From NCBI GenBank assembly GCA_965178125.1, contig OZ237743.1:1-64000 (forward strand): 64,000 bases of DNA, given 5' to 3'. The stretch is from Bilabrum cf. latius (Eukaryota). The position numbers and the translations under genes were made by a program. Positions 7,695 to 59,722 of the stretch are shown here, piece by piece (within the stretch, counting starts at the first letter, position 1; each line of letters opens with the position of its first letter). Below the pieces are notes generated by a model. The model saw nothing but the letters and a program-made list of their open reading frames with translations, ran no database searches and was not told where the DNA came from.

Positions 7695-7754
7695 ACAAAT
7701 ATTGAAGATGAAAATATTTTTTCCCCGACCCTGTCCCTGACTTTATATTAGATA

Positions 7755-9224
7755 CCCTAACCCTAACCCTAACCCTAACCCTAACCCTAACCCTAACCCT
7801 AACCCTAACCCTAACCCTAACCCTAACCCTAACCCTAACCCTAACCCTAACCCTAACCCTAACCCTAACCCTAACCCTAACCCTAACCCTAACCCTAACC
7901 CTAACCCTAACCCTAACCCTAACCCTAACCCTAACCCTAACCCTAACCCTAACCCTAACCCTAACCCTAACCCTAACCCTAACCCTAACCCTAACCCTAA
8001 CCCTAACCCTAACCCTAACCCTAACCCTAACCCTAACCCTAACCCTAACCCTAACCCTAACCCTAACCCTAACCCTAACCCTAACCCTAACCCTAACCCT
8101 AACCCTAACCCTAACCCTAACCCTAACCCTAACCCTAACCCTAACCCTAACCCTAACCCTAACCCTAACCCTAACCCTAACCCTAACCCTAACCCTAACC
8201 CTAACCCTAACCCTAACCCTAACCCTAACCCTAACCCTAACCCTAACCCTAACCCTAACCCTAACCCTAACCCTAACCCTAACCCTAACCCTAACCCTAA
8301 CCCTAACCCTAACCCTAACCCTAACCCTAACCCTAACCCTAACCCTAACCCTAACCCTAACCCTAACCCTAACCCTAACCCTAACCCTAACCCTAACCCT
8401 AACCCTAACCCTAACCCTAACCCTAACCCTAACCCTAACCCTAACCCTAACCCTAACCCTAACCCTAACCCTAACCCTAACCCTAACCCTAACCCTAACC
8501 CTAACCCTAACCCTAACCCTAACCCTAACCCTAACCCTAACCCTAACCCTAACCCTAACCCTAACCCTAACCCTAACCCTAACCCTAACCCTAACCCTAA
8601 CCCTAACCCTAACCCTAACCCTAACCCTAACCCTAACCCTAACCCTAACCCTAACCCTAACCCTAACCCTAACCCTAACCCTAACCCTAACCCTAACCCT
8701 AACCCTAACCCTAACCCTAACCCTAACCCTAACCCTAACCCTAACCCTAACCCTAACCCTAACCCTAACCCTAACCCTAACCCTAACCCTAACCCTAACC
8801 CTAACCCTAACCCTAACCCTAACCCTAACCCTAACCCTAACCCTAACCCTAACCCTAACCCTAACCCTAACCCTAACCCTAACCCTAACCCTAACCCTAA
8901 CCCTAACCCTAACCCTAACCCTAACCCTAACCCTAACCCTAACCCTAACCCTAACCCTAACCCTAACCCTAACCCTAACCCTAACCCTAACCCTAACCCT
9001 AACCCTAACCCTAACCCTAACCCTAACCCTAACCCTAACCCTAACCCTAACCCTAACCCTAACCCTAACCCTAACCCTAACCCTAACCCTAACCCTAACC
9101 CTAACCCTAACCCTAACCCTAACCCTAACCCTAACCCTAACCCTAACCCTAACCCTAACCCTAACCCTAACCCTAACCCTAACCCTAACCCTAACCCTAA
9201 CCCTAACCCTAACCCTAACCCTAA
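7755..9224 (+). repeat. Telomeric repeat array (CCCTAA)245
   Basis: Perfect CCCTAA hexamers over 1470 bp, ending in a variant CCTAAAA on the right (proximal) side. Confidence 0.99.
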
Positions 9225-9231
9225 CCTAAAA

Positions 9232-9391
9232 CGGTGGATGAGGCCATAGCGTGTGTGATCGGTCGATGAGTGGGTAGGGCGGTGGATGAGGCCATAGCGT
9301 GTGTGATCGGTCGATGAGTGGGTAGGGCGGTGGATGAGGCCATGGCGTGTGTGAAAGTACTGGGTCGATGAGTGGGTAGGGCGGTGGATGC
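9232..9391. repeat. Subtelomeric 48-bp tandem repeat, about 3 copies
   Basis: CGGTGGATGAGGCCATAGCGTGTGTGATCGGTCGATGAGTGGGTAGGG at 9232 and 9280, a variant copy at 9328, and a partial copy at 9382. Confidence 0.9.
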
Positions 9392-10143
9392 GGCAACATT
9401 TTTTTGTGTTTGTTGTTGTCGTGGGTTGCAGTAGAGGAGATGAGTCATGCCCTGGAAGGGAGCGTTGAGGGTTCTATATTTGTTGGTGAATTTGCTTGAA
9501 CATCAGGATTGAAGTAATGGGGAGTCAAGATGGTCCAGAAGTCGACGGTCAGGAGTTTGAGAGGAACAAGAGAGAGAGACAAATACAAGTGATGACAGTG
9601 CGGTGGCACTAGGACAGTACAACGTCTGGAAGGGGGCTCCAGGTGTCAGGCACAAGGAAAACGCGAGTGGCAGCGGTTTGCTGGCCATACAGCCCGCTGA
9701 AGAGGCCAACAGGCGGGTGGATGGATAGGACGCATGGCACGTCGGCCTGTACATGCAAGCTGAGAGGATAGAGTTATGGTGGTGATACAGGAAGCACAAG
9801 TACCTTAGGGCAGGGAACGGTATCGGGAAGCCGTACAGCAACGAGACCAGTCAAAGTGCACGGATAAAGTGGTGGTTATTCGTAGTAACAGAGGCACACC
9901 GCATCCGGGATTCAGGCTGGTGAAGCGCCAGTCGTCCGGGGTTGGAAAGTCTAGTGGGTCCGTGGGACCTGGCCGGTTTTCTCCTTAAGGTTAACTAGCA
10001 GAGATTGCAACAGGGCCAATGAGTGTGGTTGAAAGAACAAATGTGATCTAGAGGTTCAATAACAGCAGTGTATACGAGTCGTTTGGCATCAATCCATGGA
10101 ACTGCGTGGAACTGCTAACGACTCGCATGGTGGTGTAACCAGG

Positions 10144-17892: not shown

Positions 17893-19680
17893 TCACCTTT
17901 CGATTATTCTCAAGCTTCCAGTTACCACCTTGTTATCGAGAATGGCTCCATCCGGCAGGTCTATTCGGCTGCCGGAGTGCGCGACCACGATCACAGTCCC
18001 TCGCAGCTTCACGCCCCTGCCCATGTTCACGTTGCCGCTCACCGTCAGGTGGTCCAACTCCAGCATGTCGGGCAGGCCCGCCTCCCCCCCTTTGAATCTC
18101 TGGTAGTAGTCCCTGAGCATGGCGAACTCGGGTCCCAGCTGCACCACCGGGATGGAGGCCACGTCCCTCGAGGGATTCCGCACCAGCGACCCGTGCTTCA
18201 CCGCGAACACGTTGCTCTGCACCGTCAGCAGATCGCTCGTCGTCTTCACGGGCAGGAACCTGTCCCTAGACACCTCAATCCCCACCGCGGCAGGCAGCGC
18301 CTCCACGATGCTCCCCGCGGAGGTCTCGATCTCGAGCAGAGCGCGGCCACCCATCTCCCGCTGGTTCACCAGCACGGGCATGCGGATGCGGCCGGAGGCA
18401 GAGGCCTCGCGAGCCACCAGTTCTTCCACCGCCGCGCAACTGACCCACAGGTTGTTCGTGTTGAAGGCAGCGAACGTCTTCAAAGACCGGAACTCGGCGT
18501 CGTGCTCGGCCGGCACCTGCGCGGGCTCCACCAGCCGGGGCCTCCCATCGTACTCGATGAGGGTTCCGCCAGTGACGTCTGCTCTGGTCTTGGGCGTGAC
18601 CTCCATGCAGCAGGGCAGGTCCCCGTTGACCATGTGGTACAGTATCTCCAGAGAGGCGGTGGCCCCCAGGTTGTCAACGTTGCTGATGAAGATGTACTCT
18701 TTGCCCGCCCGGCGGAGTGCACGCAGCATCCCGCTCTTTGCAAGGGCCCGGTACACGTCTCCGTGCCCCGGCGGGTACCACGCCTGGGCCGCTGCCGGGC
18801 TGAACGGCTCCACAGGGACCGGCACCAGCGTGTCCCTGTCCACGCGCGGGTAGCAGGACTGCGTGAAGCAGTGGATCGTGACGTGGTGCTCGGCGTACCT
18901 CCGGACCACGCGAACAGTCTCTTCGTGCGTGTGGAACGAGTTCATGAGCACGAGAGGCACATCCACTCCGTACATTGTGTTTAAATACTCCACCTGCCGG
19001 ACGGCGAGATCCAAGAACGTGAGACCGCTCCTGACCTCGATCGCACCCTTCGAGCCGCGACAGCCCATCCGAGTTCCTAGACCCCCATTCAACTTTACAA
19101 TAGCTAGCTTTTGGAGAAGCTCATGTCTTAGCTTCGTGTCAGCCGGGCACGCCTCCAAGTCGCCGATGCTGGTCACGAGTTTGGCCGATGCTGGCCGGAC
19201 CTTTGACCAATCCATCTTTGGTTTTCGACGCTTTTGTTCTGCATACTACCCAAGCAAGTCGAGAAACTCTCTAGCGCTGTCAGGATCCAGGATGGATCGC
19301 ACACTCTGCGATTGACAGCAAAGAAAGACGAACACCGAACCGATCTGGAGCTTCGAGGCGAAGAAATTCAGCAGCACTAGAATAATCCTTGATCAACCAA
19401 CACTCACATCGTTTATTGTAGATCGGGCACCGGCTGGAATCCCACCCCGTGTCTGGGTGAATTCGTGCAAGGAAGCTGATTCCGCCTCGCGCGGGGCACC
19501 TATGCCGCCAAACTCCTCTTCACCAGCCCCACCAGCTGCAGCAGAGCTACCATTATCCCTGGAGATGCTGTCGCTTGCTTTTGCCCCTCCTAAGCCAGCG
19601 CCATCATCGACACTAGGTTCGAGCGCTCCATCCGGAGCTCCCGCTCCATCCGCCTCGTAGTCGCCGGCTACCGCAGCCAT
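17893..19680 (-). CDS. UGP1: UTP--glucose-1-phosphate uridylyltransferase
   Basis: Motifs KLNGGLGTRMGC, LVLMNSF, WYPPGHGD, SNVDNLGA, FNTNNLW, RFLPVK. Intron 19407-19306; in-frame TAG at 19246; TGA stop. Confidence 0.95.
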
Positions 19681-19819
19681 CGCAGCCCTCCAGTACTTAA
19701 TAAATTGCGGAGCGTGCCAGGCGCAGTTTATTGGCTTTCCATCCGAACAGGCAACCTCACGGCCCATCGAACCACGACGAACCCCTAACCGAACGTGAGA
19801 ATCCGGCGGACACACTCCA

Positions 19820-21268
19820 ATGAATGTATGGGAGCGCAGCCGATCGGTCGTTACAGCCAGCATTGTTTTCTTGTCTGGGGTCGGCGCTGGCATTGCAATA
19901 GGCTTGTTGCTGCGGGCCAGATCAGAGAAACGGAGCTCGTCGTCAAAGAGGTCAACTGCAATTCTGCAGGGATGGGTCGATGCAGTCGGTAATACGCCCC
20001 TAGTTCGATTGAAAAGCATATCAGAAGAAACAGGTTGCGAAGTTCTAGCCAAGATGGAGTTTCTGAACCCCGGTGGTACGCCGAAGGATCGAGTTGCGGC
20101 CAGCATTGTGAAAGAAGCCGTGCGCTCGGGCCAACTGAAGCGGGGCGGAACCGTTGTGGAAGGCACTAGCGGCTCAACCGGAATTGCTCTAGCTATGGCT
20201 GCTCGGGCATATGGCTGCAAGTGCGAAGTAGTGCTCCCGGACGACTAGTCCATGGAGAAAGAAATTGCGCTGAAGCGGCTCGGGGCAAAGGTGCACCGCG
20301 TGAAGTGCTGCTCGATCGTGAGCGATAACCACTACGTCAACGTGGCGAGGCGACTGGGCTCGCGACCTGGCTGCATTTTTGGCAACCAGTTCGAGACGCT
20401 GGCGAACTATCGAGCCCACCTGGCAACGACCGGGCCGGAGATCTGGCGCCAGTGTGGTGGCCGGCTGGACGCTTTTGTGATGGGAGCAGGGACAGGTGGC
20501 ACGATTGCTGGAGTGAGCAGAGCACTGGCCGATTTGGGAGTTGAGAGAACGCCCCGCCGCGAGCGATCCCCGCGAGACGATGTCTCCGTGGGGGGGGCGG
20601 AACCTTGCCGTGGATCTGCTGTGCCGGACACTGACAGCGCGATCAAGCGGTCATTAGAATCTACTCGCGTGGACGAGCTCCGCGAGCGCGGGGACAAGGT
20701 CCGCTGGGTTGGTCGCAGCGGTGCCTGGGTGCTGCTGGCAGACCCCCCTGGGTCCTCGCTGCTGCACAAGGTCAAGCACGGAGTGTGCTACGCCCCCCAG
20801 CAGGCAGAGCGGGCGGTGCGGAGACACAGGTACGACAGCATCGTGGAAGGTGTGGGCCTGGATCGACTCACGCGTAATTTCCGGCAGGCTCTGGTGGACG
20901 ATGGGTGCCGTGTCAGCGACGGAGAGACCACGCTCATGGCCCGCCGGCTGCTGCGTGAGGAGGGCCTCTTCGTGGGGTCCTCTGCTGCCATGAACGTGGC
21001 GGCGGCACGCAGGCTTGCGCTGGCGATGGGGCCCGGGCACAGGATTGTGACTGTGCTGTGCGATTCGGGGTCTCGTCACGTGAGTCGGTTCTGGAGCGAG
21101 AGCTGGATGAGGGAGCACGGCTTTGGGGAGCAGCTGGATGCAGCCCAGGCAGCCGAAGAAGGATGCGGGGAGCAGACGCAAGGGAAGGATTTGTAGCAAG
21201 GAGACAGTTCGCGCGCAGGTGATGGCACAACTGGGGAGTCCCACATCGAGGCGCACGACGGGCAGTGA
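19820..21268 (+). CDS. Cysteine synthase-like PLP enzyme with N-terminal membrane anchor (MCY1/Cys12-like)
   Basis: Motifs VGNTPLVRL, KMEFLNPGGTPKDRVA, EGTSGSTGIALA, GAGTGGTIAG, EGLFVGSS, LCDSGSRH. In-frame TAG at 20246 (PDD*SMEK) and at 21194; TGA stop. Confidence 0.93.
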
Positions 21269-21431: not shown

Positions 21432-24400
21432 TCATCGCCCCCCCTAGGCAGTCGAACCTCCACCAGCCTAGGCCGGTGCCCCTGCCTTGGGAATCCCCGT
21501 CCGTACGCGCTGCATCATGCGGAAGCTCTCCCTCCGCCGCAGCACCTCACGCGCGTCTCTCATCGCTGATTCACCCGCCGGCACATTGGTGCCCACCGCC
21601 ACGTCTGCCCGGCTGCCCTCGGCCCCTAGCGAGACGTCCTCCAGTCCAGGGGCTGCGTCCAAGTCGCTGCCTCCGCCGAACGTGACGCCTGTTCCCGAGC
21701 CTGGCATCTTGTTGCGAGCGTACTCGGCCGGGTTCAGCACAGCCGAGTGGGCTGGCATCACGGCGCCTTGTCGCACCGCCTCCCTCGTCGTGCGCACCCG
21801 CTCCTCCGTGGACTCCGACTACAGCCCTCTGGCACCCCCTGCCCTGTGGCTCCCGCTAGACCGCGCAGCTGGCGACCCAGACGCCCCCGCCGCTCCAGCT
21901 CCCCCCACCCCATCGTCGTCCTCGTCACCCCCAGCGCCTACCTCCTCTGGATCTCTCTGCACCAAGTCGGCGTACCGCTGCGCGTCCCGCAGCAACCGCA
22001 GCGCCTCCTCGGGTTTCTCGGCTTTCATGGCAGCTTCGGCCCGCTCCATGAGCTCTGAGTGGGCCTTTTGCGCGCGAAGACTCTGCACCCACTCCCTGCC
22101 GCTGGCCTCGTCCTGTGCCTGCACCAGCAGTACTCTCCCGTGGATCGTGTTGATGCGGAAGGCCCCCCTGCGAGTCATGGGCTGCACGTCCGCGATGTCC
22201 TTGAGCTGCACTACCCCTTTGGGCGCGAAGGAGTCCGGCTCGTAGTACTCGAGCGAGTCCCCGCTCAGCACGAAGCTCCGCTCTCTCCAGCTGTGCACGA
22301 TCTGGCCCCGCTTCACCAACAGTCCCGTCTTCACCACGCGCCGCTTGCGAGCCTCGAAGCCGAGGAGCTGGTTCCTGACTCCGGCCAGCTGCGCCGAGCC
22401 CACTGTCCCCGTGATCCAGTCGTGCTCAAGGACCTCCTCGGCGGTGGCTCGGCGGGCGGGGTCTACCTGCAGCATCTTGCTGACCAGGTCCTTGGCCTTG
22501 TCGCTGACCGCATCCCAGTACGGGCTGTCGAACCGGTAGTTGCCCTGCTTGATCATTTTGAAGAGCATCTGCTGGTTGGGGTGCTGGAAGGGCTGGTACC
22601 CGCACAGCAAAATGTACGAGATGATGCCCAGCGACCAGATGTCTGCCTGGTACCCGTAAGGCCGCTGCTGCAAAATCTCCGGGGCCACGTAGGAAGGGGT
22701 CCCGCAGGCGCTTCTCAGCCCGCGCATGGGGACCTCGGCTGCGAATCCCAAGTCTGCCAGGCGCAGGGGAGCGTCTGGCTCTGGTCCTGCCAGCAGGATG
22801 TTCTCCGGCTTGAGGTCCCTGTGGGCCACCCCGCGGGCGTGCATGTACGCGAGGGCCTCGGCGAGTGCCTTGACCACGTCCCTGGCCTGCCTCTCGTCGT
22901 ACGTGGACGAGTTCACGATTCGATCGAAGAGCTCCCCGCCAGTCAAGAAGTCAGAGACCAGCACCCAACGGTCGTCCACCTCCCAGAAGCCCAGCAGACC
23001 CACGATGTGCGGATGTCGGACCTCTTTGCCGATCATCACCTCGCGGTAGAAGGAACGGAGGGCATTCGAGCTCCCGGCCAGTCGAGACTTGCTCACGAAC
23101 TTGGCCGCCACAGCCCTGCCCCGCGTGAGGTCAGTCGCCCGGTGCACGATCGAGTACCCGCCACGCCCCACCACCTCGTGCACCTCGAAGAGCTCGTTGA
23201 AGTCCCCGCGGTTCACCAAGCCCCTGAAATCCTTGTCAGTGGGCGACTCGGGCAGCTTCCGCGCGTCCCTCGATGCCCCCGCGAGCCGAAGACCGGCCCG
23301 CCTCGCCAGCCATGCAGCGTCCTCCTCTGGCGTGCGTCCGGGATCCGAGGCAGACCCACCCGTCCCGGAGCCCGAGGCAGCTGCCGCAGAGGGTGAGGCA
23401 GAGGAGGAGGCCCCCGAGGCCTGGCTGGCGCCCGCGGCGGCGGCGGATCCCGGAGCGGCAGGGGCCTTAGGTCCGGCCCCGGCCCCGGCTGCAGGCACGT
23501 CTGCCCTGAGATGCACGGACTGCAGGACAATGCTATAGGCCTGCTGCACCACTGGAGTCCACCGCCCGTCCTGCTGCTCGTAGTGCGCGACGCATGCCGC
23601 CACGATCCTGTCCCTCACCGAAGCAGTCACCTCCTCCTGGCACAGCAGCGACTGGAGGGAGGCCAGGGACTCCACCAGGGAGCGCTCGCTCAGGGCGCTG
23701 CGCAGGGCGGAAATGGCCCGCTCTAGAGCGGCCGACCCCCGGTTGGGGTCCCTGACCCCTGACTTGGACAGGCGGTCCAGCTCGCCCCTCGCTTCGTCCT
23801 GCGCTGCGGCGCTCCCGCTGAGCAGCTGCCGGCGGATGTCGTCCCGACCACCCTCGCTCAGCGCCCCGGCTTCGAATAATCGGCTAGTCTCCCGAAGCAG
23901 CTGCGTTAGCGGGGTGGGCTTGCTCCTCAGCTGATCGATCGCCTGCACCCAAGCATCGCGGTCCAACTCATCTTTCGCGATCATTTGATAAACTCGACCA
24001 TCGGAACGCACCTCCACCTCAAGGACGACCGGGTTGGTGCATTTTCGAACAGCTGACATATCACCGAGCACAATGGTACCGCGTTTTTGACCGACGGGAA
24101 TTGCGCCCGCCCTCAGGTCATCTCGCTCTACTCCTGCGATGGCAGCTTCTGCCGTTCTCTGTGCCCGCTCCGCGTCCTCTCCCCCACCTACAGGAACTGC
24201 AATAGAGGTAGATCCCGTCTTATCATCTTCGGCTGTGCCGTCACTCCGGCCGCGGCTTCGACTTCGCGTGTCTCTGCGCGCGCTGTCCTCGGCTTTCAGC
24301 TGCAGCTACGAGGCATCACTTTCAGATCCAGCCTCTGAGCGAGACCTTGAACCATTCTCCTCTGCGGCTGGTACGAAGTAGCGAAGCCCAGAGGGTGTCA

Positions 24401-24716
24401 GGATGAACATTCTGGTATTCCAAGTCCTGAAGACTGCACCCTGCGAGGCTCGTTGCAGGGGCAAAAGGTTGGAATCAACGAGGAGTGCAGAGAAGCCGAT
24501 TCAATTGAACGAGCCAGGTGCATCGATTGTACCAAATTGTAGAGAAAAGGCACCCACCTGCTTCCGTAGGGTCCCGAACTTAACGACAATTTCATTATGC
24601 CAGGGTGGCATCCGCGACGAGGTTCGCTTGGGGAGGCCGCTGCTAGAGCTACTGCTTATCCCGCTGTCTCCTGCTCCCCGTAATGGAGGCACATATGATC
24701 CCGTGGCAGTGGTCAT
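21432..24716 (-). CDS. CaMK-group Ser/Thr kinase flanked by two PH domains
   Basis: Kinase motifs VGRGGYSIV, HRDLKPEN, ADLGFA, CGTPSYVAPE. PH motifs VKFGTLRKQ|GAVFRTWNTRMF and KTGLLVKRGQIVHSWRERSF. Intron 24557-24441; TAG at 24306, 21819, 21468, 21444; TGA stop. Confidence 0.9.
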
Positions 24717-32056: not shown

Positions 32057-33800
32057 TTAGTCCTCCATAGCCATGGATGCCATGGCAGCCTCTGGATCGA
32101 ACGCCACCTCGCCGCCCGCCCCTGAGGATGCAGCAGCAGCGGCCGAGGACGAGGAGGAAGCGGACGATGGGGGTGCCTTGGCAGGGGTTCCGCCCGCAGG
32201 AGAGGCCCCCTCGCCTTCCCCTGTCGCAGCAGAGGAGGCGGCTTTGAACCCTGCAGAACTGCCGGATGAGCTCTCATGCCCCCCCGCCTGCTGCTCCGCT
32301 CTCATGCGCAGCACCTTCCTGCTCTGCGCGAAGTACATGTTCGGGTGGGTGCCCACGTTCTCGGGGATGCTCTGGTGCCTCGCCTCGAACTCCCGCACAC
32401 ACGCGATCTGGTAGTCCTTGGTTGCAACCGCCTCCATCACGTGCTCCAGCTGTGCCCCTTGCAGGCCGGAGGACGCCTGCAGCATCTGTCGGACCGCCTC
32501 TGGCTTCCAGTGCTTGTACGGGCACCCGTGCGCAGACTCAGGCTCGGGGCCTGGGCCCGGGGCCGAGATGATGCGCGCGCAGGAGAAGGGTGAGTAGTCC
32601 TGCCGCTTTCCCTCCTTGCCGTACGAGTGCCTGACGTTGTATGCGTACCTCTTGAGGAACTCGTCCGGGGTCATGCTCCTCGTGAACTCGTGCTGCCAGA
32701 AGTGCAGGGACTCCTCCAGGGACAGCCCGATGCCCTTGAGGAACAGACCGTACTGCAGACGGGCGTCGTGCTTCAGCTTGTGGTGCCTCCTGAGAGCCCC
32801 ATGCGCCGCCCTCATGCACAGCGGGAAGGACTCACCCGAGACACGGTCCACGTCACCGGCAGTCAGCCGCTCCCCGCCCGCCGCCGCCATGGTCGCCTTG
32901 GCCAGGTCTGGGCCAACGTAGGCGCGAGACATGTTGGTCAGCAGCGAGCCCAGCCGCTCATCCTGCAGCACTCCAGGCAGCGAGCGCGCCGCGAAGACGA
33001 GCGCCCTGGCCAGTCGCGCCTTGAAGCGACCCACCACAGTCGCCACCAGCCGCTTGCGGGGCACGAAGGCGTCCCCCCCGCGCAGCAGGACCATCCTGCG
33101 AGACACGAGCTCGGCTGCCTGCGCAAAGGGTACCCTGTAGTACGTGTCCCTGGCCGCCTCTCGGTCTGCCTCCACGGGGCTCTGCCCGAAGGGCCGCGTG
33201 GCAATCGCGACGGCCCGCAGCTGCGGCAGCAGCTCCTGCTTGGTATCGTCGTCCACGGACTCGTACTCCAGGCCCGCCTCCCGCATGAATGCAGATACCT
33301 GCTCCGGGGTCTACCGCTGCAGCCGATGGCGGAATAGCACACCCTCCTGCGACACGAACCAGCGTCGCTTCTCTTCGTTCTGGCAGTAGGCCAACCGCAG
33401 GATGTGGTGAGACACCGTGTCGCGCCTGCGAGCATCTGCCGACCGCAAATCGCCACCCAAGTGTTCCCGGCACTACTTCTCTACCTCTGCATCAATTTCG
33501 TCGGGCTTTGCACCCCTTGATCGGGCGTTGTCTACAGCTTTGAGCACTGCGAGATTCAAACGAAAACACGAGCATGGCGCGACACAACTACCAGCATTGC
33601 GATACAGTCTTGATGTAGATCAATATTATTGGTGAGTTCTGCTGCTTACCTCTTAGCCGATCAAGGGCGAGCACTTCGAAATCGTGCAAAGTTACCTCGT
33701 CCTGGGGCTGCTGATCATACATGGTCAGGGTCGACTCTGGCTCGCTAGCTCGACCACCAGCGGGCCCAACACCTCGTTTTCCAGCTCTTTGCACCAACAT
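32057..33800 (-). CDS. PRIM2: DNA primase large subunit
   Basis: Motifs [66 protein letters not shown]. Intron 33649-33547; TAG at 33473 and 33311; TAA stop. Confidence 0.95.
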
Positions 33801-34158
33801 TGTTGCGCGTGATGTACTAAAGCTATTCTGTAAACGCTTTTGCAGGATCGAAATTCAAATCGGCATTCTTCCGGTTTGGTTGGTATGCAGACAAACACAT
33901 AAAACAAGGTTGCAAATGAGTTCGCCAAGCATAATACGTGCTGTAGATGTTCTGTTTGAGAGCATTTGTAGCGACAAGGCGCGGGCGGCTCTTAATCGGC
34001 GCGGAAAGACACCACGGTCGCTAGCATTTCAGCACTTGCTGGTGCCAAGCCGCCATCAACCGACGAAGCTCACACCCGATGGAATTTAGGAAGAGGATAT
34101 CTTACTAGCAGCAATCATTGCGGCGTAGCGGCGCGGGGCCATTCAAGAGCACGAACGA

Positions 34159-37100
34159 ATGGCATCCCTCAGTCAGGTCTCCCGATCCGCTGCGGTGTCG
34201 TCAAGTACCCGGGTGGCCCAGTCGATCATAGCACTAATTGGCGCTCTCGGACTTTCAAATCGTGGCGTAGAAGGATAGCTGCAATTTCTTTAGAGTCAAT
34301 CCACTTGGTTCCGGCAGGAGTGCCCTGCAGGCGGGTGGACCCGCGAGCCCCAGCAGCGGAGGGTATCCACATCCGAATCGCCCGCAAGAGCTTTGGATTG
34401 GTCTATGGCTCCCATGCCTCTGCAGCTTCGATCCAACCTGATGCACGCAATGCCTCGCCAAGACGGCGTGGCCGATTCCGGGCCAAGGCTTCCTCCAGCA
34501 GTTGCCGCAAGTGGCAAAGCCAGGAGGCTGCGCTGGAGGAGCTAGCAAGCAAAGGTGAAGCGACGGTCTGGAACAGACACTCAGGCGGTTGGAATCCCGA
34601 ATCCAGCCAGCGTTCTAGTCCGTGGACTAGATGAGGGAATGGAGCACCAGCTGCGCTTCGTGTGTTCAGCTGTGGACCGATGGCTGCGCGTGGGGCCAGC
34701 GTTGGGTTCTGGTGAATCAGAGGCTCTGCGTGGTGTGGGCACTGGAGTGGCTCGCTTCACGCTATCGAATATAGCAAACGAGTTGCACAAGGTGTCCCTT
34801 GGGGCCGTATCTGCAGCACATGGCACCTGCGGCGTGTCACCAGGCTAGCGCGCAGAGACTTCGATTGGAGTGGTCCGAGACACTCAAAGCGGGATATCAG
34901 TATCGCGCATGAAACTTTGGAAAGAGGCCGTCATGCAAGCCTATACGGTTGCCATTGGGGTGGCAAGGGCCGGGCATGGACTCTAGCTCTCTGGTATGCA
35001 CACCCACCCCCGCCTGCTAGATGCGACTGCCTCGATGGCGCTGCGGGCGATAGGGAACATCGCAGCGGTGTGGCCTCAGGATAAGCAGGCACATGTTCGA
35101 AACATTGCGATAGCTATTATTGATGCGTGTGCTAGTACCATTGCCGAGCAGGCCCTGCTTGCTGCCTTCGACCATGGCGATGGTCCCTCGGGAGTATTCC
35201 CGAGTGCCAGCCTGCGGGTCGCGCTGGAGCTGATCGCTGGAGGCAGGGACGGGGGCATGATGGATTTGCAATTTCTGTGCGACGAATTCGGAGCAAGTTC
35301 TGTGTGGCTAGGGCGCGAGGCGAAGGACGTGGGTCGGGCCATGGCACTGGTGCCCGGCACGCTTCAGCGGTTGCGGGGGCTGGGCACCCACGCGCTGGAT
35401 GCATCCCTGCAGAGGGTTCTGAGAGGCCTGGTCGAACTCAGCAACGCCGCCGACTTGGAGACCACTGTGGACATCGTGGCCGAGTATGTGCAGGCAGTGG
35501 CTGCCGGGGAGGCCCAGCCCGTGCCAGGCCTCTAGGGGGAGGACGAGCAGTTGTCTGGCCCCACTGCAACCCACAGTGCCGATGGTACTGGTGTCCATGG
35601 CTTGGGTGGAGGGCCAGCTGCAAGCGCAGCAGCGTCATCGGTACGGAGTGCGGTGTCTGGTGCGGCTCGCAGTGTGCTGGCCCTGTCAAACCTGCATCGA
35701 GTGGCCCGCTCCGTGAGGTCGGCAGTGTCTGGGATTGGGGGCTCGATGGCCGCTGGGCGTGCCGGTGGAGCGTCTGTCCGGAGCAGCGCCTCATCCGTGT
35801 TCTCTGCAGTGAGCACAAGGGAGTCAGTGCTGCAGTCGTAGTATGAGAGCGTGGTTGGGGCATTTACGAGAGGCGCGGGGCTGCGGCGCCGACGTGCGGG
35901 TGCGACGAAGATGGGAAGCCGACCGAGCGGGCTGGCTGTCGATGCCGCCGGAAGCGAGGCGGCCTCGGCGGCATCGACCGCGATCGGGCGGGCGCTGAAA
36001 GCCGCAGCCCGTCCGGCGCTACCCGGCCTCCCCTCCTCTGTTGGAAGGGCGCATCGGTCCCGCCACCGCCCGGGAGTTGTTCATCGAGTGGACGTGCTTG
36101 GGACCATCGGCGAGGATGACGAGGGCGAGGAGGGCGAGGGCGGGCAGGGGGCAAGCAGGGGCAGCGGTGGCGAGGAGGCGGCGTCTGAAAGTGCAGCAGG
36201 CGCAAGCAGCAGGTCTGGAACGAGCACAGTGCAATCAGAGGCAGAGGCAGGCCTCTAGCCTTTACTAGGCCTGAATGGCCGGGCCTTGGTCATTCAGCTG
36301 GGGCCACCATCACCGAGGAAAAAGGGTCCACGGTCACCCACACGGCCCCGCCCCGCCACACAGCAGCAGCCCACAGAGCAGTAGCAGGCAGCAGACCGAC
36401 GCGCGCGTTTCTTGCAGGCCGCCGCGCAGGAGGCGCGGTTCAATCGGGAGCTGCAGGAATGGGAGGCCAGCGATGCACTGGCAGCAGAGAGGCATACTGC
36501 GGCCCAGCTGCGGGAGCGAGAGGATCAGCTCAAGAAAGAAGCCAAGGCTGACTTGATGCGGCGGTATGGTGTCAGCATGGAGGACGGGTCCGCCACCGAG
36601 CCTAGAGATGGGGTCGATGAGCACGAGGCACCGGCAAGGCGCATGACACTGCTGGATCCTGCCGAGGACTAGGGGGCGGTGAGAGCGACTAGAGTCAAGC
36701 AGACGGACTTGGTTGGCACGGACAGTGTGTTGCAGCACGGGGAGGAGGGCGGTGGAGGGAGCAGGGAGAGGGGAAGGGGAGGGGGGGTAGCCCCACCACC
36801 GGCATTCAAAGCAGCCCAAGTTGATTGGGCTTCCTGCGGGATACCGCCAGCGAGCGGTCAACGCAGTCGGGCATCAGATGCCTGGCACTTGATCTCGCTG
36901 GAACAGTGGTGCGGCGTGTCGAACGCTGCCCGGGGCTGCTCCAAGTGGATCCAGGTGCAGGCAGACGAGGCCCCCTTGCGCAAGGGGCCAGGACGAGGCG
37001 CAGAACCGGGCCATCATGGGGGAGGCAGGCTTGAGGCGGCGCGAGCAGGGCGGAAAGTGCTGGGCACACTCCGTCAGATCCTCGGGGTTGCGCCTGCCGC

Positions 37101-38406
37101 CGCCGCCTCGATCGCTCTGAAGCGGCACGGGCTGCTGCAGGCGTGGCACGCGATGCACGGAGTGTGCACGTGCACGGAATCCACTGCCTGGGCTGCCGTG
37201 GTGGACGCATCGCTGCCCAGCGAGCTGGTGGGTGGCTGGGCGGCAGCAGGTGCCTGTGCTCGAGCAGCCCGAGATGCCAGGCCTCGGCCATCGCGCGGTG
37301 CTGGTCCATGTGAAGACCGATTTCATGCTCGCACTTTGTCATCGCAGCTAGATGTGCTGCTGCAGGAGGCACTGGAGGCCCCCCGAAACAGGGGGGGAGG
37401 GGCAGGTGGGGGCGTGCAGCTTGGGGGAGGCCAACTGAACGACGAGGGCACCCCTACCTTCCAGCTGAGAGCAGCCCAGACCGGCAGGGATGCAGAGGCA
37501 CGCGCCGCTGACCCCTGGGGCGTGGACTGCCTGCACTGCCTGCAGGTGCAGGTGCAGGCCCCACAGGCCCTCGGGCTGTTTTGTTCCGCTGGCGACATCG
37601 ACCGACTCGCTGGCATCGCCCCGGTGCTGCTGTCACTGGCCCGGTGCACGCGCGCCTTGGATTTGGCCTCTCTGGCTCTCATGAAGAGAGGCAGGGGCAG
37701 GGACAGGGACAGGGGTAGGGGGCGGATGATGACGGGTGCGGAGACTAAGGCGCACCGGCGGGCGTTGATGGCGCTGCAGGCCGCGCGGTCTGGTATGCAG
37801 TCGATCGCGAGGTGGGCGGGTGCCAGCTGCGAGGCGGCGTGGGGCAGGCTGCTGCGGAGGGTGGTGCACGTGGGGTCGGGGCTGGCGGCGGGAGGCACCA
37901 GCCTGTCTCCGTCCTTGCTGCGGAATCTCTTTGCGCAGTATGTGGCCGAGGTGAGGGCTGTGTGCCTGCAGGGAGGCATCGCGGGAGGTGGCTGGGAGGG
38001 CGGGCCACTGGGTGCCTTGGGCAAGGGGTGCATGCAGCTGGCGCGGGGACTGCTTGCGGGGGAAGAACAGCCGGCTGGCAGCAGGTACAAGCTTGTAGAC
38101 CGTGCAGCAGACGCGGTGGCCCACTCGTTGGGTGCACTGGAGGAGCATCTGAAGCACTCGGCCGAGGCGCTGCTGGTGGGGGCCGATGCTGCGAGGGGGG
38201 GCGCGGGCGGACTGCTGCTGGGCGCGAGCTCGGATGTAGGGCTAGTGCAGTGCATAGCTCGCTCCGAGCGAAGACAAAAGCTTGGTGGATGCATCCAGCC
38301 ACGGCTTGGTGTTGCCGATGCTTAGACGCTGGCCGTTTCGATGCAGGAGCTCGCAGCTGGACTGCAACTCACGAATGCGAGCAAATTGGTGCCGCATAGG
38401 GTGTAA
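34159..38406 (+). CDS. Probable gamma-tubulin complex component (Spc97/Spc98 family, GCP6-like), ~1415 aa
   Basis: Single frame with about 11 TAG and no TAA/TGA until TAA at 38404. GRIP2-like segment WGVDCLHCLQVQVQAPQALGLF...VLLSLAR and a central coiled coil. The family call is tentative. Confidence 0.5.
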
Positions 38407-39096: not shown

Positions 39097-39295
39097 ACTG
39101 CTTGGGGTAGGTCCGTAATGGGACGTTGGACGCTCGGCGAGCTGGCGGAGCAGACCGGAATCCTAGAGGCACCACATTCTCTTTCGAGTTCGAGCAGATA
39201 TCAACGATTGTCGCGTCAAGAAGAACCCTAAGACGTGACGCAAATTACAGTCTGAAGAGGTGGGAATGGCTCCTGCTTAGGCACAGGGCGGCACG

Positions 39296-41131
39296 ATGTC
39301 GCTCGGACCTGCGATTCGAGCTGTGCTTTTGCTACTGTTGCTCTGGACAATGATCGGGTTCTTTTTCGGTTGGGATGCGGCCCTCGCTGGTGGTTCTGGG
39401 CTCGGACTTATCGTGACGGTATCTGTCGCTGCTGTAGCGGGCCAGCTTTTGGCGTTTGCGACTGGTGCACCCGAGCTGCTCGGCGCGCTGCTGGCCGGCC
39501 TGCTCCTCCGCAACATACCAGCCCCCGTGGATGTAGGGGCCTGGGTTGACGACTCGCTGGCATCTCTCCTTCGAGCGTGCGCCCTGGTGTTGATTCTGGC
39601 TCGTGCGGGGCTTGGCCTGGATATGGCCACGCTGTCTCGGCTCGGCGCAGCTGCCGCTCGCCTCGCGCTCCTCCCCAACGTGTGCGAGGCCTCTCTGGCC
39701 GCCGTCATCCTGCAGTCCATATGGGGCATGGGCTGGGCCTGGTCGTTCGCGGGCGGTTTCCTCCTCTCTGCGGTATCCCCCGCAGTAGTGGTCCCGTCTG
39801 TGCTCCGGCTGCAGGACCAAGGGCTTGGCACAGGGCAGGGGGTCCCCACCCTGGTGCTGGCCGCTGCATCGGTGGATGACGTGCTGAGCATCAGCGGGTT
39901 TGGTGTGGCGCTGGGTATTGCGCTGGGGGACGCAGGGCTGCAGGGAGGCGAGGGCGAGGGAGGGGGCGGGCATGGTGCAGCGGAGGTGTGGAGGCCGGTT
40001 GCCGAGCTGGCGGCGGGGCTTGGTTTCGGGCTTGTGGGGGGCGCGCTAGTGGCAGCGGTGTGGCACCCTGGGGCTGGTGGGAGTAAATCACCGCAGTCGC
40101 AGTGGGCTGGGCTTGCGCTGTTCCTGCTGGGGTGTCTTGCGGTGCTCGGCGGCAGGGCGGTGGAGCTGGGGGGCGGGGGCGCACTGGCAGTGCTGGTGCT
40201 TGGGGTGGTTGCCGCGGCGGTGTGGAAGGGGGAAGACGCAGTTGCTTTCGAGGCCCCCTAGGGCGAAGAGAGGCCGTGGTGGAGGCCGGTAGTCGTCTTG
40301 TTGAGGTTGGGGGGCGAGTGCGGGGGGGCGCTCCTGGCAGCGTGCTGCGGGTGCTGCGGGTGCTGTGGGGGTGGAGGGGTGGAGGGCGTGGATGCCCTCG
40401 ATAGCGCCGAGCCAACTGTACCGACAGCAGCAGCCGCCCCTTCGGACAGCGCAGAAGCGGGCTCTGCGCCTCGTGCCAGCCCGCGGGAGGGCAAGGGGCA
40501 CGCGCTGCTGCGAGGCACTGCTGCCCAGCTGAAGCGGGTGTGGGCCGTGGCTCAGCCAGTGCTCTTCGCTCTGATCGGCGCGGCGGTGGACGTGCGAGGA
40601 CTCTCTGGGGAACTAGTGGCAGGGGCGGCGGCGGCGCTGGCAGGCGGGCTGGCGCTGCGCGGGCTGCTTGCGTTCGCTTGCGTGCTCGGGAGCGGTGCAG
40701 GCGGGGACAAGCTGACCGCCTGGGAGTCACTGTTCGTCGCCGTCGCCTGGATGCCCAAAGCGACCGTGCAGGCCGCGCTGGGGCCGGTGGCTCTGGACGC
40801 CGTGCTGGGGCTGGTGGACGATGGAGATGAGAGCAGCCTCCCGCAGGAGCAGCAGGAGGCGCTTGAGGCGGGGCGGGCCTTGCTGGCGCTGGCGGTGCTG
40901 TCCATCCTGGTGACTGCGCCGGCGGGTGCGGCGCTCATCGCGTACACGGGGCCCCGGCTGCTGCGGGTGGACGAGAGAGTGAGGATGCTGCAGAAGGGTG
41001 AGGAGAAGGAGGGGGTCAGCGGTGTCGACAGAGAGGCTGCAGAGGGGGGAGAGGTGGCCGCTGAAGCCGGTGCTGTGCAGGGGGGCGATGCCGACATGCA
41101 GGTTGAGAGAGGTGGTGCATAGCTGGTGTGA
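39296..41131 (+). CDS. Na+/H+ antiporter of the NHA/SLC9B (CPA2) family
   Basis: Motifs LILARAGLGLD, AVSPAVVVP, AAASVDDVLSI, QPVLFALIGA, WMPKATVQAALG, ILVTAPAGA. In-frame TAG at 40259 and 41120; TGA stop. Confidence 0.92.
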
Positions 41132-55911: not shown

Positions 55912-58900
55912 TCATTCAGGGCCATCCACGGATGCACCCTCCGCCAGAGCCAGGTCTCTGAGCCCCGCTTCCTCCGAGCTGCAGCACCACGCACTCAATG
56001 CCTTCTCCTCAGCCTCCTCCTCCCTCCTACCTGTGGTGCCCAAGTCCTCGACGACCTGCACCTTCTCAAGTCGCACGCACCAGTTGCCTCTCTCGTACCA
56101 TGACTCCCGCACAACAAGCGCCCAGCCCGCTCCATCCTCGCCCATGCGCCCACTCTCACCCGAAGCACGATCAGCGCCCCCGGCGTCCTTTCCCTCGCCT
56201 GCACCATCCGCACCCTCACCCGCCTTACCGCGCCCCAGTCGCCCAACCTGCTCGTTCACGCCGGTCACGAGATCCTCTAGTTCACCGCGCACAAACAAAT
56301 GGCAGAACCGCTGCAGCACCAGCGACCCTGCACCCCCATCCTCTTGTGCCCTGGCCTCCCGCAGGGCAGCTGCCTGCCGCGCAGCTGCCACTGGATCATC
56401 CTCTTTCCCATCGACCTTGGCCTTACTGGCACCAGACGCAGGTCTGCCCCGCCCAATAGGCGAGCGTTCGGCTGAGGCAGTTGAATCACCAGCGCCAGCA
56501 CCAGCACCAGCACCAGCACCAGCACCAGCACCAGCACCAGCACCAGCACCAGCACCAGCACCAGCGCCAGCACCAGCACCAGAACCAGCACCAGCACCAG
56601 CACCAGCACCAGTACCAGCACCAGCACCGCTGCTAAGCCCAGCATCCTCAACCCCATCCCCAGCTTGGGCCAGATTTGCGCCTTCCCTAGCTGCCTACGC
56701 AGCGAGCGCAAGGTCCGGCGGCAGCTTCCAGGGAACAAACGTGTCCTTCCCCTGCTTCGAACCGGCCTACTACCCCGCACCCGCCCCAGCCTCCGCGAAG
56801 CATCCCAGTTTCTCAAACCGCCTGTACACCGCGCTGCCCTTTGGCTGCTCCAGTGCCCACGCCTGCACCAGCGCCGTCCCGCCGACCCGCAAGATGCGGC
56901 CTATCTCGAACATGAGTCGCACGCGCCTTGCCCTCGTGCTGATGTGGTGCAGCACCGCGATGGACATGGCTGCGTCCGCCGTGCCTCCCCTCCACGGCAG
57001 CACCAGCGCGTCGGCCACCCCCACCTGTGCCCGCAGCCCCGCCTCCTCTCCAGCCTTGCCAGCCAGCTCCACAAGCCCAGCGCTCCTGTCAAATCCAGCG
57101 CACACTAGCTGCGGAAACCCTGGTTTGCCTCCCTCTGCCCCACCCGCGCGCTCCTCCTTCGCCAGCGCCTGCGCGCTCAGGATGTACCTCCCGTTGCCGC
57201 ACCCAGCGTCCACCACCAGCGACAGCGGCCGGAGCCGCCGCATGAAATCTAGCACTCGCGGCCACCCGCCCAGCGCATTCCCGCCTCTCCGCTTGCCGCT
57301 GCCCTCTCCGCCTGCCTTGCTGTTGCCCTTGCCCTACCCCCGAGCGGCTTGCGAACCCGCCCTGCCCGCCGACCTGGTCTCGGAAAAGTGCGGGGCCACG
57401 GCGTCGTAGAAGGCATGCACCCCCACCCGCTCGCTCTCGGGGGTGCGCAGCACGGCAGCTCCCGCCTCGCTGCCTGCCTCTGCACCTGCACCTGCAACTA
57501 CTCCCGCGCCGGCACCAGCCTCGTCCTGCAGCGAGGGAGAGAACAGCCGGTCCGGGGCCTTGGTGGCTCCTCCAGCCCTCCCGTCCAGCTCGTCCAGTGC
57601 TGCCGCCCATGCCACCTGCCGCAGAGTCAGGCTGATCCGCCTGCTTCGAGGCACCAGCGAGGCGCCCACCCTATCCCTCTCACGGGGCGCGATGGCGTGC
57701 GTCCACTCGTACCTGGAGGGGCCCGTCATCACCAGCAAAGAGCGGCGGGGCAGCACCACGGGGCGCTTGCCGGCGGGATCTGCGGCGGGTGGGGCCAGCT
57801 CCATGACCGTGTCTGATAGCAGGGACAGGGAACACAAGAAAGGGCCAAAGGCGCCGGGGGTATCTGTGTGCGCACTGATGCCCTGACCAGGGAGGTACTC
57901 GTTCGCTGTCGCCTAGTCGAAGTGCCAACCCCCAGAGCCAGGGCCAGCGGCACTTGAAGCAGCAGCAATGGGTGTAGGTGCACCTGCAACGGGCGATGCA
58001 TCCGCTGTGTGTGCCAGCGCTGCCTCATTGGCACCGTGCATCGCTTTCGCCCCCGCGGCAGCATCCCGAGCAAGCGCTGCCTGCCGCTCTACTTGCTCAC
58101 TGGACTGCGCCTCCCCCCACGTGGCGGCAGTGCTGGGGGTGCAGGCACTAGGGCTGGCGCTAGTAGCATGGTCCCACGTGGGTACCAGCCAGGGATCCAC
58201 GGGAGCATTGAGCTGGCCAGCACGAGGAGCTGACGTCTTGCCTCCCTCTCCCTCTTCCTCTTCCCCGCTTGCAGCAGATGCACGAAGTGCCCGCGCCGCT
58301 CCATACGCCTCGCAAGCTGCCAGTGCCCTGCATGCTGCCTCCGCCCGGCGACACACGGACTAAAGCAGAGAAGGCATGGGCCTCGTGCAGCGGTCCCCAG
58401 GCAGGAGCGCTCTCCCCGCTCGGGCCCGCACATCCCCTGCCGCGATGCCCCTGCTCACGTAGTCGAACCGAGCCCCGAAGTGGCACACCCGCCTAGACAT
58501 CGTGGAGTCCCACATGCCCCCACCATCCCCGCCATCCCCGCCCTCCCCTCCATCCATGGACCTCGCCAGCGCCTGCTCCTCCTCCTCGCTCACGAACCCT
58601 CGCAACAGGAAGAGCCCAGGCACTCCCCGAACACGCACCTCAGGACCAAGCGCGTCCCGGAGAGGGGACAGCAGAGCCGGCAGGCTCTCGCCGAAACTGG
58701 GCAGTGCAGCGGCAACTCGCTTGGCGGACAGCCGAAACACGCTGAGCCTGGACCGGGGCCGGGGGTCGCCGGCAGAAGGCACCCCATCCGATGATGCGCC
58801 GCCCGCAGCTGCAGATGCAGCTACAGAGAGGGTGCGACCAGCTGATTTGTCTCTCGAGTGAGGGACATCCCAGTGCCCCGCAAGGCTCCAATCCATTCGG

Positions 58901-59469
58901 CACAGCTCCTCCAAATCGTCGGAAGCCTCCGACCCACGACACTCCCCAGTGGCCGCAGCCGGCGGCTCCGCCCCGTGTTTCTGCAGCAATCGGGTGAAAC
59001 CTACCGCCGCCCTGAGAGTTTTGAATGTGACAAATGCCTCTCGACGCGACGCGATGGCGCGGACTCCAGCCACACAGTCGGTGTTTCTGGCATCAAGTCG
59101 CGCCAGCTTGGTGGTGAGGATGTCTGAAATCACTGCCGCGGCCTTCCCGTCCGCCACCGCAGCTTCCTCCTCTGATGCGATATTTGCAGGTGGTAGTGTG
59201 TATCCGTTGGGACTTTGGTACGCCGAACGCTTTCTGGGTTTCGTCCATCGAACACATACGTGAAACCCAATGCTGCACCGCTCTGTTCCCGTGCACCCAG
59301 TGAATCTATGAAACGGCTGACCCAAGCAAACATCTGCTGGGCCGCTCCAGGATCGGAAAAACCCAAATCTAGCCGTATCTTGGGCGTCTGGCGGTGCGCA
59401 CCCCCTTGCGTACTAAATTGGTACGTCTTTGCCGCTCTCCAATCCGGTCTTTGCATCCACATCATGCAT
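55912..59469 (-). CDS. ALKBH8: ALKBH8-like tRNA wobble-uridine modifying enzyme (2OG-Fe(II) oxygenase + Trm9 methyltransferase)
   Basis: Oxygenase motifs PGLFLLRGFVSEEEE, RRVCHFG, FD*ATANEYLPGQGISAHTDT, RYEWTHAI, RISLTLR. MTase motifs YDAVAPHFSETR, DAGCGNGRY, IAVLHH, VWALEQ-like QAWALEQ, DTFVPW, RFCHLF, GNWCV. Seven in-frame TAG; TGA stop. Confidence 0.92.
56487..56628. repeat. (CCAGCA)n hexamer repeat encoding poly(Gly-Ala) inside ALKBH8
   Basis: Read directly; about 23 imperfect units. Confidence 0.9.
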
Positions 59470-59722
59470 TGTGGCGTAATGCTCAACATAAGCTCCGCGC
59501 GACGCTGCATCACAACTCATTTAGAACACTTGTACTCTTCAGATGCGAATCTACGGTACGCGTAGGAAATTCTGCTGCGTCGTCTAGGTAAGCCTAGATT
59601 GATTCCTGTGGAAGGCTCCGGATCCCAGATAGCGCCGCGCAAAAAAATGTTCCGTATAATGCATGCACAGGATAAATCAGAAGATCCTTCCAATAAACAA
59701 ACAGCAGCACACGAATTGGAGC

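Follow-up and report, generated by a model that had tools for sequence, protein, structure and literature searches.

Introduction

Nuclear genetic codes that give UAG and UAA different meanings are rare, the cited accounts reporting them from one fornicate, one rhizarian, one green-algal genus and a few ciliates. In the fornicate Iotanema spirale, UAG encodes Gln and both UAA and UGA are stop codons (Panek et al., 2017; PMC5304391), and the combination of UAG as Gln with UAA as a stop has also been reported for the ciliates Hartmannula sinica, Trochilia petrani, and Protocruzia tuzeti (McGowan et al., 2024; PMC11687900). According to the same two sources, UAG is read as Leu by the rhizarian exLh and by a phyllopharyngean clade, and as Ser by Scotinosphaera (PMC5304391, PMC11687900). 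In a further code (NCBI table 6), UAA and UAG together (UAR) specify Gln; it is attributed to many ciliates, hexamitin diplomonads, some ulvophytes and Streblomastix, and UAR is likewise given as Gln in the algal parasite Amoeboaphelidium protococcarum (PMC6299283, PMC11687900). In the present work we analyzed a 64-kb stretch of genomic DNA (positions 1 to 64,000 of contig OZ237743.1, Bilabrum cf. latius; hereafter, the window), which carries on its minus strand an ALKBH8-like gene with a TAG triplet, codon 536, in a column where homologous proteins predominantly have Gln. We consider it probable that the nuclear genes of this organism read TAG as a sense codon, most likely for Gln, with TGA and TAA as stop codons, and that codon 536 of the ALKBH8-like gene is one such TAG.

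As described for Iotanema, UAG alone would have become a sense codon in the window, UAA and UGA still terminating. The reassignment of UAG alone with UAA kept as a stop is also what the sources describe for exLh, the phyllopharyngean clade and Scotinosphaera, and the codon change itself is the one reported from Hartmannula, Trochilia, and Protocruzia, where it is described as having arisen several times independently. A code with UAG as Gln and UAA and UGA as stops is known but rare, and the best reading of the window is that it is a further case of it. In the described cases for which data are given, UAA is the main stop codon (PMC5304391, PMC11687900); a GC-rich genome in which most genes end in TGA, TAA remains a stop and TAG means Gln would extend these cases to another mutational background.

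An In-Frame TAG in the Gln Column of an ALKBH8-Like Gene

Translation of positions 57860-57930 on the minus strand gave GWHFD*ATANEYLPGQGISAHTD, in which the asterisk is a TAG at 57913-57915 (minus strand); letters and translation agree with the position given for this codon in the initial annotation. The TAG is codon 536 of a frame of 1202 codons (55915-59520, minus strand, TAG read as sense), and occupies the place of the conserved Gln in the [D/N]-Q-x-T-x-N-x-Y motif. The frame contains seven TAG, no TAA and no TGA, and is ended by a TGA at 55912-55914 (minus strand). Each of the remaining five frames of this DNA contains 5-20 TGA (mean 12.2), so that the absence of TGA over 1202 codons is a mark of a translated frame. 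TAG is not avoided in the same way, being found seven times in the ALKBH8-like frame versus 3-9 times in each of the other five.

The conservation of the TAG536 column was determined with a query of 101 residues that starts at the first codon past the TAG (57610-57912, minus strand), in order to avoid circularity. The query was compared with a database of 1.84 billion representative proteins, giving 3550 matches at E up to 0.001, and the following counts refer to the best 150 of these 3550, as listed. The residue preceding the aligned part of each match was obtained by offset; 144 of the 150 reach the column and six begin too late. Gln occupies it in 135 of the 144, followed by Asn (three), Ala (two) and Arg, Glu, Tyr and His (one each), with Leu in none; among the listed matches that carry a Trm9-type DxGCGxG motif, Gln is present in 31 of 31. 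The column preceding TAG536 is Asp in 76/144 and Asn in 41/144, and the window has Asp. Twenty-four of the 101 query columns hold one residue in at least 90% of the 150 listed matches, and the window is identical at all 24, which include the N, Y, H, D, distal H and terminal Arg columns. The TAG536 column is the only Gln column that reaches at least 90%, the Gln of PGQGI being present in 120/150. The iron-binding HxD motif is encoded 15-17 codons past TAG536 as H-T-D (CAC ACA GAT, 57862-57870, minus strand); its His is kept in 150/150 and its Asp in 147/150 of the listed homologs, and the window matches both.

The initial annotation had placed the TAG on the Q of the AlkB-domain motif, just ahead of the Fe-binding HxD, and had proposed scoring the conservation of the column as a check. 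Motif, Q position and distance to HxD all held, and the column proved to be predominantly Gln, also among the homologs with the methyltransferase motif. The annotation had further called this codon the best single-site evidence for Gln, which is a fair description: it is the sole alignable TAG of the window on a hyperconserved column, and the closest relative has CAG there.

This relative (P0004), the best match of the gene, is encoded on two metagenome contigs (L001 and L002) and is 83% identical over the C-terminal part of the AlkB domain. On each contig, the gene occupies one frame that lacks TGA and TAA. At the site, the relative reads TGG ACC TTT GAC CAG GTC ACA and the window TGG CAC TTC GAC TAG GCG ACA, the differences including a synonymous TTC/TTT change two codons before TAG536. 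Over the 100 codons past TAG536, 80 residues are identical, with 24, 8 and 65 differences at codon positions 1, 2 and 3, respectively. The stretch between TAG387 and TAG536 is weakly conserved (51 of 129 residues identical), and has 64, 54 and 84 differences by position. The excess of third-position differences on both sides indicates that the sequence flanking TAG536 evolves as translated sequence, and the pattern past the TAG is, judging from these substitutions, one of purifying selection on a translated product. The relative has in-frame TAGs of its own: four within the gene, where the window has CCT, CTC, CAC and GGC, and a fifth on L002, upstream of the part that aligns with the window.

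The stretch around TAG536 is letter-identical in contigs from three studies (X1 record 2, X5 record 13 and X6 record 21); a further contig (X7 record 28) begins 7 bases from TAG536 and was left out of this count. Whether the matching contigs derive from RNA could only be guessed, so they show the presence of the letters and are silent on splicing or expression. Since the TAG lies in frame in an intact and constrained gene, corresponds to CAG in the relative, and is common in other genes of the window (see below), a sense reading is favored. From these comparisons, TAG appears to be translated, with Gln as the best-supported residue.

The ALKBH8-Like Gene and Its Relatives

The frame encodes the C-terminal half of an AlkB-type 2-oxoglutarate-Fe(II) oxygenase (57619-57996, minus strand, codons 509-634; PF13532, E 2.6e-16), which includes TAG536, and a Trm9-type S-adenosylmethionine-dependent methyltransferase domain (56869-57210, minus strand, codons 771-884; PF08241, E 5.6e-9), placed 3' of four of the TAGs and 5' of the other three. 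Among solved structures, human ALKBH8 (3thp, E 1.3e-23) is the best match, aligned as codons 275-359 and 535-626, and the methyltransferase part matches the Trm9 tRNA methyltransferase 5cm2 (E 1.7e-10). A single frame therefore holds the N-terminal part of AlkB (codons 275-359), its C-terminal part (509-636), the methyltransferase (752-894) and a conserved C-terminal stretch, and the TAGs at codons 387, 536, 729, 917, 918 and 942 stand between these domain pieces. The hallmarks of AlkB proteins (HxD, the distal His and the RxSxTxR end) all match at their His, Asp, distal His and Arg columns, and the Trm9-type methyltransferase lies C-terminal to the AlkB domain. Matches from named organisms come from Chlorarachnion (56% over the query) and Albugo (33%), both too distant for placing the organism of the window. 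The Albugo sequence, which its source calls alkB 8, can be aligned over both domains and has FDQVTANEY at the site.

Like human ALKBH8 (3thp/3tht), the window protein can be aligned from D-Q-x-T-x-N-x-Y through HxD to the distal His. It differs from human ALKBH8 and Trm9 in its length of 1202 residues, in its long low-complexity insertions and in that no RRM was detected: for codons 38-270 there was no Pfam family at E up to 10, and the 3thp alignment starts at codon 275. A REAFVTF stretch resembles, in our reading, an RNP1 strand. The name ALKBH8 in the initial annotation thus stands as far as the AlkB and Trm9-type domains and their order are concerned, and falls short at the N-terminal RRM; since no RRM was detected, the gene is called ALKBH8-like here.

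Low-complexity insertions occupy codons 388-534 and 895-1100, and another one lies between FSETR and WPRV. The two large insertions contain or border five of the seven TAGs. Their GC content at third codon positions (GC3; 57334-58362 and 56200-56870, minus strand) is 0.50-0.54, versus 0.78-0.80 in the conserved domains. In the methyltransferase insertion, a hexamer (CACCAG in plus-strand letters; 56487-56628, minus strand) is repeated 23.7 times and encodes (Ala-Gly)n, and the contigs of all compared runs break over this repeat, at 56482-56634.

The remaining TAGs of the gene could be compared with relatives to different degrees. TAG36 (59413-59415, minus strand) corresponds to GTG in the closest relative, in an N-terminal stretch that aligned weakly, and TAG387 (58360-58362, minus strand) to GCA (Ala). 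TAG729 (57334-57336, minus strand), within the 35-residue insertion between FSETR and WPRV, and the adjacent TAG917 and TAG918 (56767-56772, minus strand), within a low-complexity insertion, are not alignable. TAG942 (56695-56697, minus strand) corresponds to Gln in a protein fragment of a relative (P0167). From codon 37 onward, past TAG36, the sequence is conserved with a relative. Translation probably starts at M1 or M18, since an ATG does not recur until about codon 218, downstream of this conserved sequence.

Other relatives (P0165, P0166 and P0167) are fragments from public assemblies; together with L001/L002, the relatives show 65-86% protein identity. The public ones are gene fragments with ends where a TAG is expected, which indicates that gene calling with the standard code split those genes. 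The trait thus seems, from these sequences, to be shared by a small clade. Since standard-code gene calling fragments these genes, annotation of this organism and its relatives needs a variant code.

TAG, TAA and TGA Across the Window

Fifteen frames of the window are backed by Pfam or by close relatives, and 12 of them contain in-frame TAGs (48 TAGs in 10254 codons). They correspond to the ALKBH8-like gene, a kinase with a PH domain, a PA/PDZ protein, an EF-hand protein, a tetraspanin, a RhaT-like transporter, a TB2/DP1 protein, a long frame at 33715-38403, a PTB-like RRM protein, a DUF1295 protein, an amino-acid transporter, UGPase, a cysteine-synthase-like protein, the DNA primase large subunit, and ARPC4. 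Four of these conserved genes were added by a Pfam search of 13 further frames, the other nine giving no match. When window proteins were used as queries for placing the organism, the TAG-free PTB-like protein gave five matches, none with a name, and the amino-acid transporter matched broad eukaryotic clusters only. In-frame UAG was therefore found within the conserved coding sequence of many genes, although some of those near frame ends may be outside the coding sequence.

The first TAA or TGA ending the 15 frames is TGA in 10 and TAA in five. Past the TAA of the EF-hand frame, the amino-acid transporter and the frame at 33715-38403, GC drops from 0.64 to 0.51-0.57 and the translated sequence no longer looks coding; in ARPC4, the TAA comes three residues beyond the last residue of human ARPC4. 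In frames of at least 500 codons that are bounded by TGA only and match supported genes, in-frame TAAs are found at gene ends and none inside. TAG is about as frequent in frame as off frame (42 versus 54 per frame-equivalent, 11 frames), which indicates that there is little selection against it. By these counts, TAG is used as sense and TAA and TGA act as terminators. NCBI table 6, in which UAA and UAG both encode Gln, was considered and rejected: there is no internal TAA in the 15 frames where about 10 would be expected, a number derived from CAA:CAG = 64:252 on the supposition that TAA is used like TAG.

In several frames, which were read through every TAG by design, a TAG lies 2-26 codons ahead of the final TGA or TAA. 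Such late TAGs are found two codons before the end of a membrane protein frame (39239-41128, plus strand), at codons 1011 and 1019 of the 1022 of the kinase frame (21435-24500, minus strand), at codon 466 of the 489 of the cysteine-synthase-like frame (19799-21265, plus strand), and at codon 1537 of the 1563 of the frame at 33715-38403 (plus strand). They could be former terminators that are now read through, or sites where TAG still terminates.

The Residue Encoded by TAG

Close relatives have Gln at four of the seven alignable TAGs of the window: codons 536 and 942 of the ALKBH8-like gene, and codons 986 (36670-36672, plus strand) and 1537 (38323-38325, plus strand) of the frame at 33715-38403, where the Gln is that of P0165, an 86%-identical relative. 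The other three have Val, Ala and Glu, the Glu facing codon 424 of the frame at 33715-38403 in the same relative. Gln codons make up about 4% of the codons in supported frames. In addition, two open reading frame fragments of the 86%-identical relative stop exactly at CAG codons of the window.

Distant homologs of solved structure in the PDB were searched with X in place of TAG. In the cysteine-synthase-like frame, a pyridoxal phosphate enzyme, TAG150 (20246-20248, plus strand) lies within a P-x-x-[Q/M]-S-x-E-K loop and corresponds to Gln in the nearest solved sequences (5i7w and 5jis), to Ala in 5jjc (the same protein) and to Met in cystathionine beta-synthases. A rough likelihood calculated with BLOSUM62 and BLOSUM80 over 16 aligned pairs, which assumes independent sites and background frequencies supplied by ourselves, ranked Gln first, with the next residue 1.8-4.8 log10 units lower, Leu 3.3-7.3 and Glu 2.4-4.8 units below Gln; Gln was first by margins within these ranges also when TAG536 was omitted. 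UAG thus corresponds to Gln in homologs, with contrary sites that show His, Arg, Leu and Leu. From the alignments, the assignment to Gln is the best-ranked reading and is not proven. As to noncanonical amino acids, selenocysteine uses UGA, and pyrrolysine is not known in eukaryotes.

Several points weigh against TAG being a Gln codon, beginning with those contrary sites. TAG143 of ARPC4 corresponds to His in three of three solved sequences; TAG49 of UGPase corresponds to Arg in the three printed alignments covering it, all of them obtained with the full-length query, the short one having had no match in the PDB; and, in the DNA primase large subunit, TAG103 corresponds to Leu in two distinct printed sequences and TAG49 to Leu beside a gap. 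The four sites fall in locally divergent stretches. At the less conserved UAG positions reported for Iotanema, Gln is likewise found at a minority (23-41%), similar to ordinary Gln codons (PMC5304391). Two window TAGs of the ALKBH8-like gene face Ala and Val in the relative, whose own TAGs face Pro, Leu, His and Gly in the window. The assumptions behind the likelihood belong here too, as does the way in which the frames were chosen: the absence of TAA and TGA was part of their definition and the zero counts of these codons are partly built in, so that the evidence lies in the length of the frames and in their domain content across TAGs. ARAGORN gave no tRNA gene in the 64-kb window, no Rfam family was found in it, and a run look-up recorded none of the runs containing the TAG536 stretch as RNA. 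Finally, TAG536 by itself cannot separate a codon decoded as Gln from a broken gene, because no nonsense mutation is commoner than CAG to TAG; it is the gene-wide and window-wide pattern, together with the relatives, that tells decoding apart from decay.

Alternative Explanations

The alternative that survives best, which we nevertheless regard as improbable, is that TAG does encode an amino acid, but one other than Gln (Glu, His, Arg, Leu or Ser), and that the Gln column of ALKBH8 bears a tolerated substitution. Codes with UAG as Leu and with UAG as Ser are indeed described (PMC5304391, PMC11687900), and the His, Arg, Leu and Leu at four TAG sites in distant homologs, together with the Glu in one close relative, would fit such a code. 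The only hyperconserved TAG column, in contrast, is Gln in 135 of 144 listed homologs, with no Leu and a single Glu, and is CAG in the relative; Gln at four of seven sites in close relatives compares with a share of Gln codons of about 4%; and in the likelihood both Leu and Glu fall well below Gln, the contrary sites being locally divergent.

A little harder still to sustain is that TAG is a weak or context-dependent stop, read by a near-cognate tRNA-Gln(CUG) in the absence of a dedicated tRNA with anticodon CUA. The inserted residue would likewise be Gln, so all the column evidence fits; readthrough driven by tRNA-Gln is the subject of a preprint (PMC13192750), and the TAGs close to TGA in several frames could mean that TAG still ends some proteins. 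With 48 TAGs in 12 of 15 frames and seven in one gene, however, the yield of full-length protein would be tiny, and leakage fits poorly with a TAG that is about as frequent in frame as off frame (42 versus 54 per frame-equivalent).

Loss of the gene, an error or RNA editing is very unlikely. Here TAG536 would be a CAG-to-TAG nonsense mutation in a pseudogene, a sequencing or assembly error, or a codon restored to CAG by U-to-C editing; CAG to TAG being the commonest nonsense route, a TAG on a Gln column would also be expected from decay, and removal of stops by U-to-C editing is reported from plant organelles (PMC12548569). A decaying gene with seven TAGs would not be expected to lack any TGA, TAA or frameshift over 1202 codons, to keep 24 of 24 hyperconserved columns, or to be under strong purifying selection downstream of TAG536, and a like pattern is present in 12 of 15 frames and, at other positions, in relatives. 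The identity of the contigs of three studies at the site speaks against an error, and editing would be expected to target TGA and TAA too, neither of which is found in frame.

Least probable of all, and scarcely credible, is that the TAGs lie in in-frame introns and the mature mRNA follows the standard code, TAG536 being part of a CTAG|G acceptor: the genome does have introns (in UGPase, as deduced from the sequence), an in-frame GTGAGC...CTAG candidate of 546 nt (58458-57913, minus strand) would remove both TAG387 and TAG536, and GC3 is 0.50-0.54 in the two large insertions versus 0.78-0.80 in the domains, but the relative lacks the donor, its codons opposite the GTG AGC of the window being GCA TCC. 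The protein sequence of the stretch is nevertheless conserved in frame (51 of 129 codons identical), with a third-position excess and with GW-x-FD adjoining the site, and the spliced product would lose the [D/N]-Q pair and would have 8 residues from HFG to NxY where 106 homologs have a minimum of 11, then 38, and a median of 46. No GTRAGH donor is in range of TAG codons 36, 917, 918 or 942, and the UGPase intron has an in-frame TGA within five codons and a GC of 0.47 where the ALKBH8-like frame has no TGA in 1202 codons.

Decoding of UAG and Comparison With Known Codes

For TAG to be read as Gln, decoding would be carried out by a tRNA-Gln with anticodon CUA, which is one base from CUG and would pair with UAG and not with UAA, and eRF1 would have lost or weakened its recognition of UAG. 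The published discussion of this type of code states that reading UAG with UAA kept as a stop needs both a CUA tRNA and an altered eRF1 (PMC5304391, section 9). No eRF1 was found among the window frames scanned against Pfam. The motifs of eRF1 that bear on stop recognition are GTS, NIKS and YxCxxxF, and T32G of Iotanema is a change at the residue in contact with the third-position G. With genomic DNA available, what Panek et al. predict for the tRNA and for eRF1 could be checked directly.

Among the described codes, that of Iotanema is the same in its assignments, and in both cases UAG falls mainly on Gln columns: at 22 of 28 hyperconserved positions in Iotanema, and in the window at the one hyperconserved site plus four of seven sites in close relatives. 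Other features set the window apart: the main terminator is UAA in Iotanema (104/119) and TGA in the window (10/15); and Iotanema is described as known from its transcriptome only, whereas the window is genomic DNA with nothing linking it to fornicates. The window also differs from the ciliates Hartmannula, Trochilia and Protocruzia in being GC-rich (0.52-0.73 in 2-kb windows), in carrying many genes of 300-1600 codons on 64 kb, and in having a CCCTAA telomere-type array. In this it is presumably unlike a ciliate macronuclear genome. The codes with UAR as Gln share TAG as Gln with the window, in which, unlike in them, TAA is never internal in the 15 frames and ends five of them. What separates the codes with UAG as Leu or Ser is the residue, for in the window both the conserved column and the close relatives point to Gln.

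Beyond the cited cases, the literature gave no GC-rich non-ciliate with TAG as Gln and TAA as a stop, the GC content and TAA use of Amoeboaphelidium having been left unchecked. It is quite possible, and we put it forward tentatively, that the window represents an independent and undescribed origin of the code with UAG as Gln and UAA as a stop, in a small clade of GC-rich, intron-poor, mainly TGA-terminating eukaryotes that are neither ciliates nor fornicates.

Introns and Repeats in the Window

The only intron recognized in the window is in the UGPase gene (19306-19407, minus strand), where a sequence of 102 nt (GTGAGT...CGCAG, GC 0.47), with an in-frame TGA after four codons, is inferred to join an exon with the ATG (19680-19408) to the conserved body of the gene. 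The frame of the DNA primase large subunit (32060-33619) has no ATG ahead of its conserved part, and may also contain an intron.

A telomere-type array (ACCCTA/CCCTAA) lies internal to the window, at 7754-9226, with 245.5 copies and 100% matches. An interstitial telomere, the assembly of two chromosome ends into one, or a scaffold join could account for it; genes are present on both sides. Ahead of the array lies a 155-bp tandem repeat (6464-7694, 7.9 copies, 99%), and behind it a 48-bp repeat (9232-9394, 3.3 copies).

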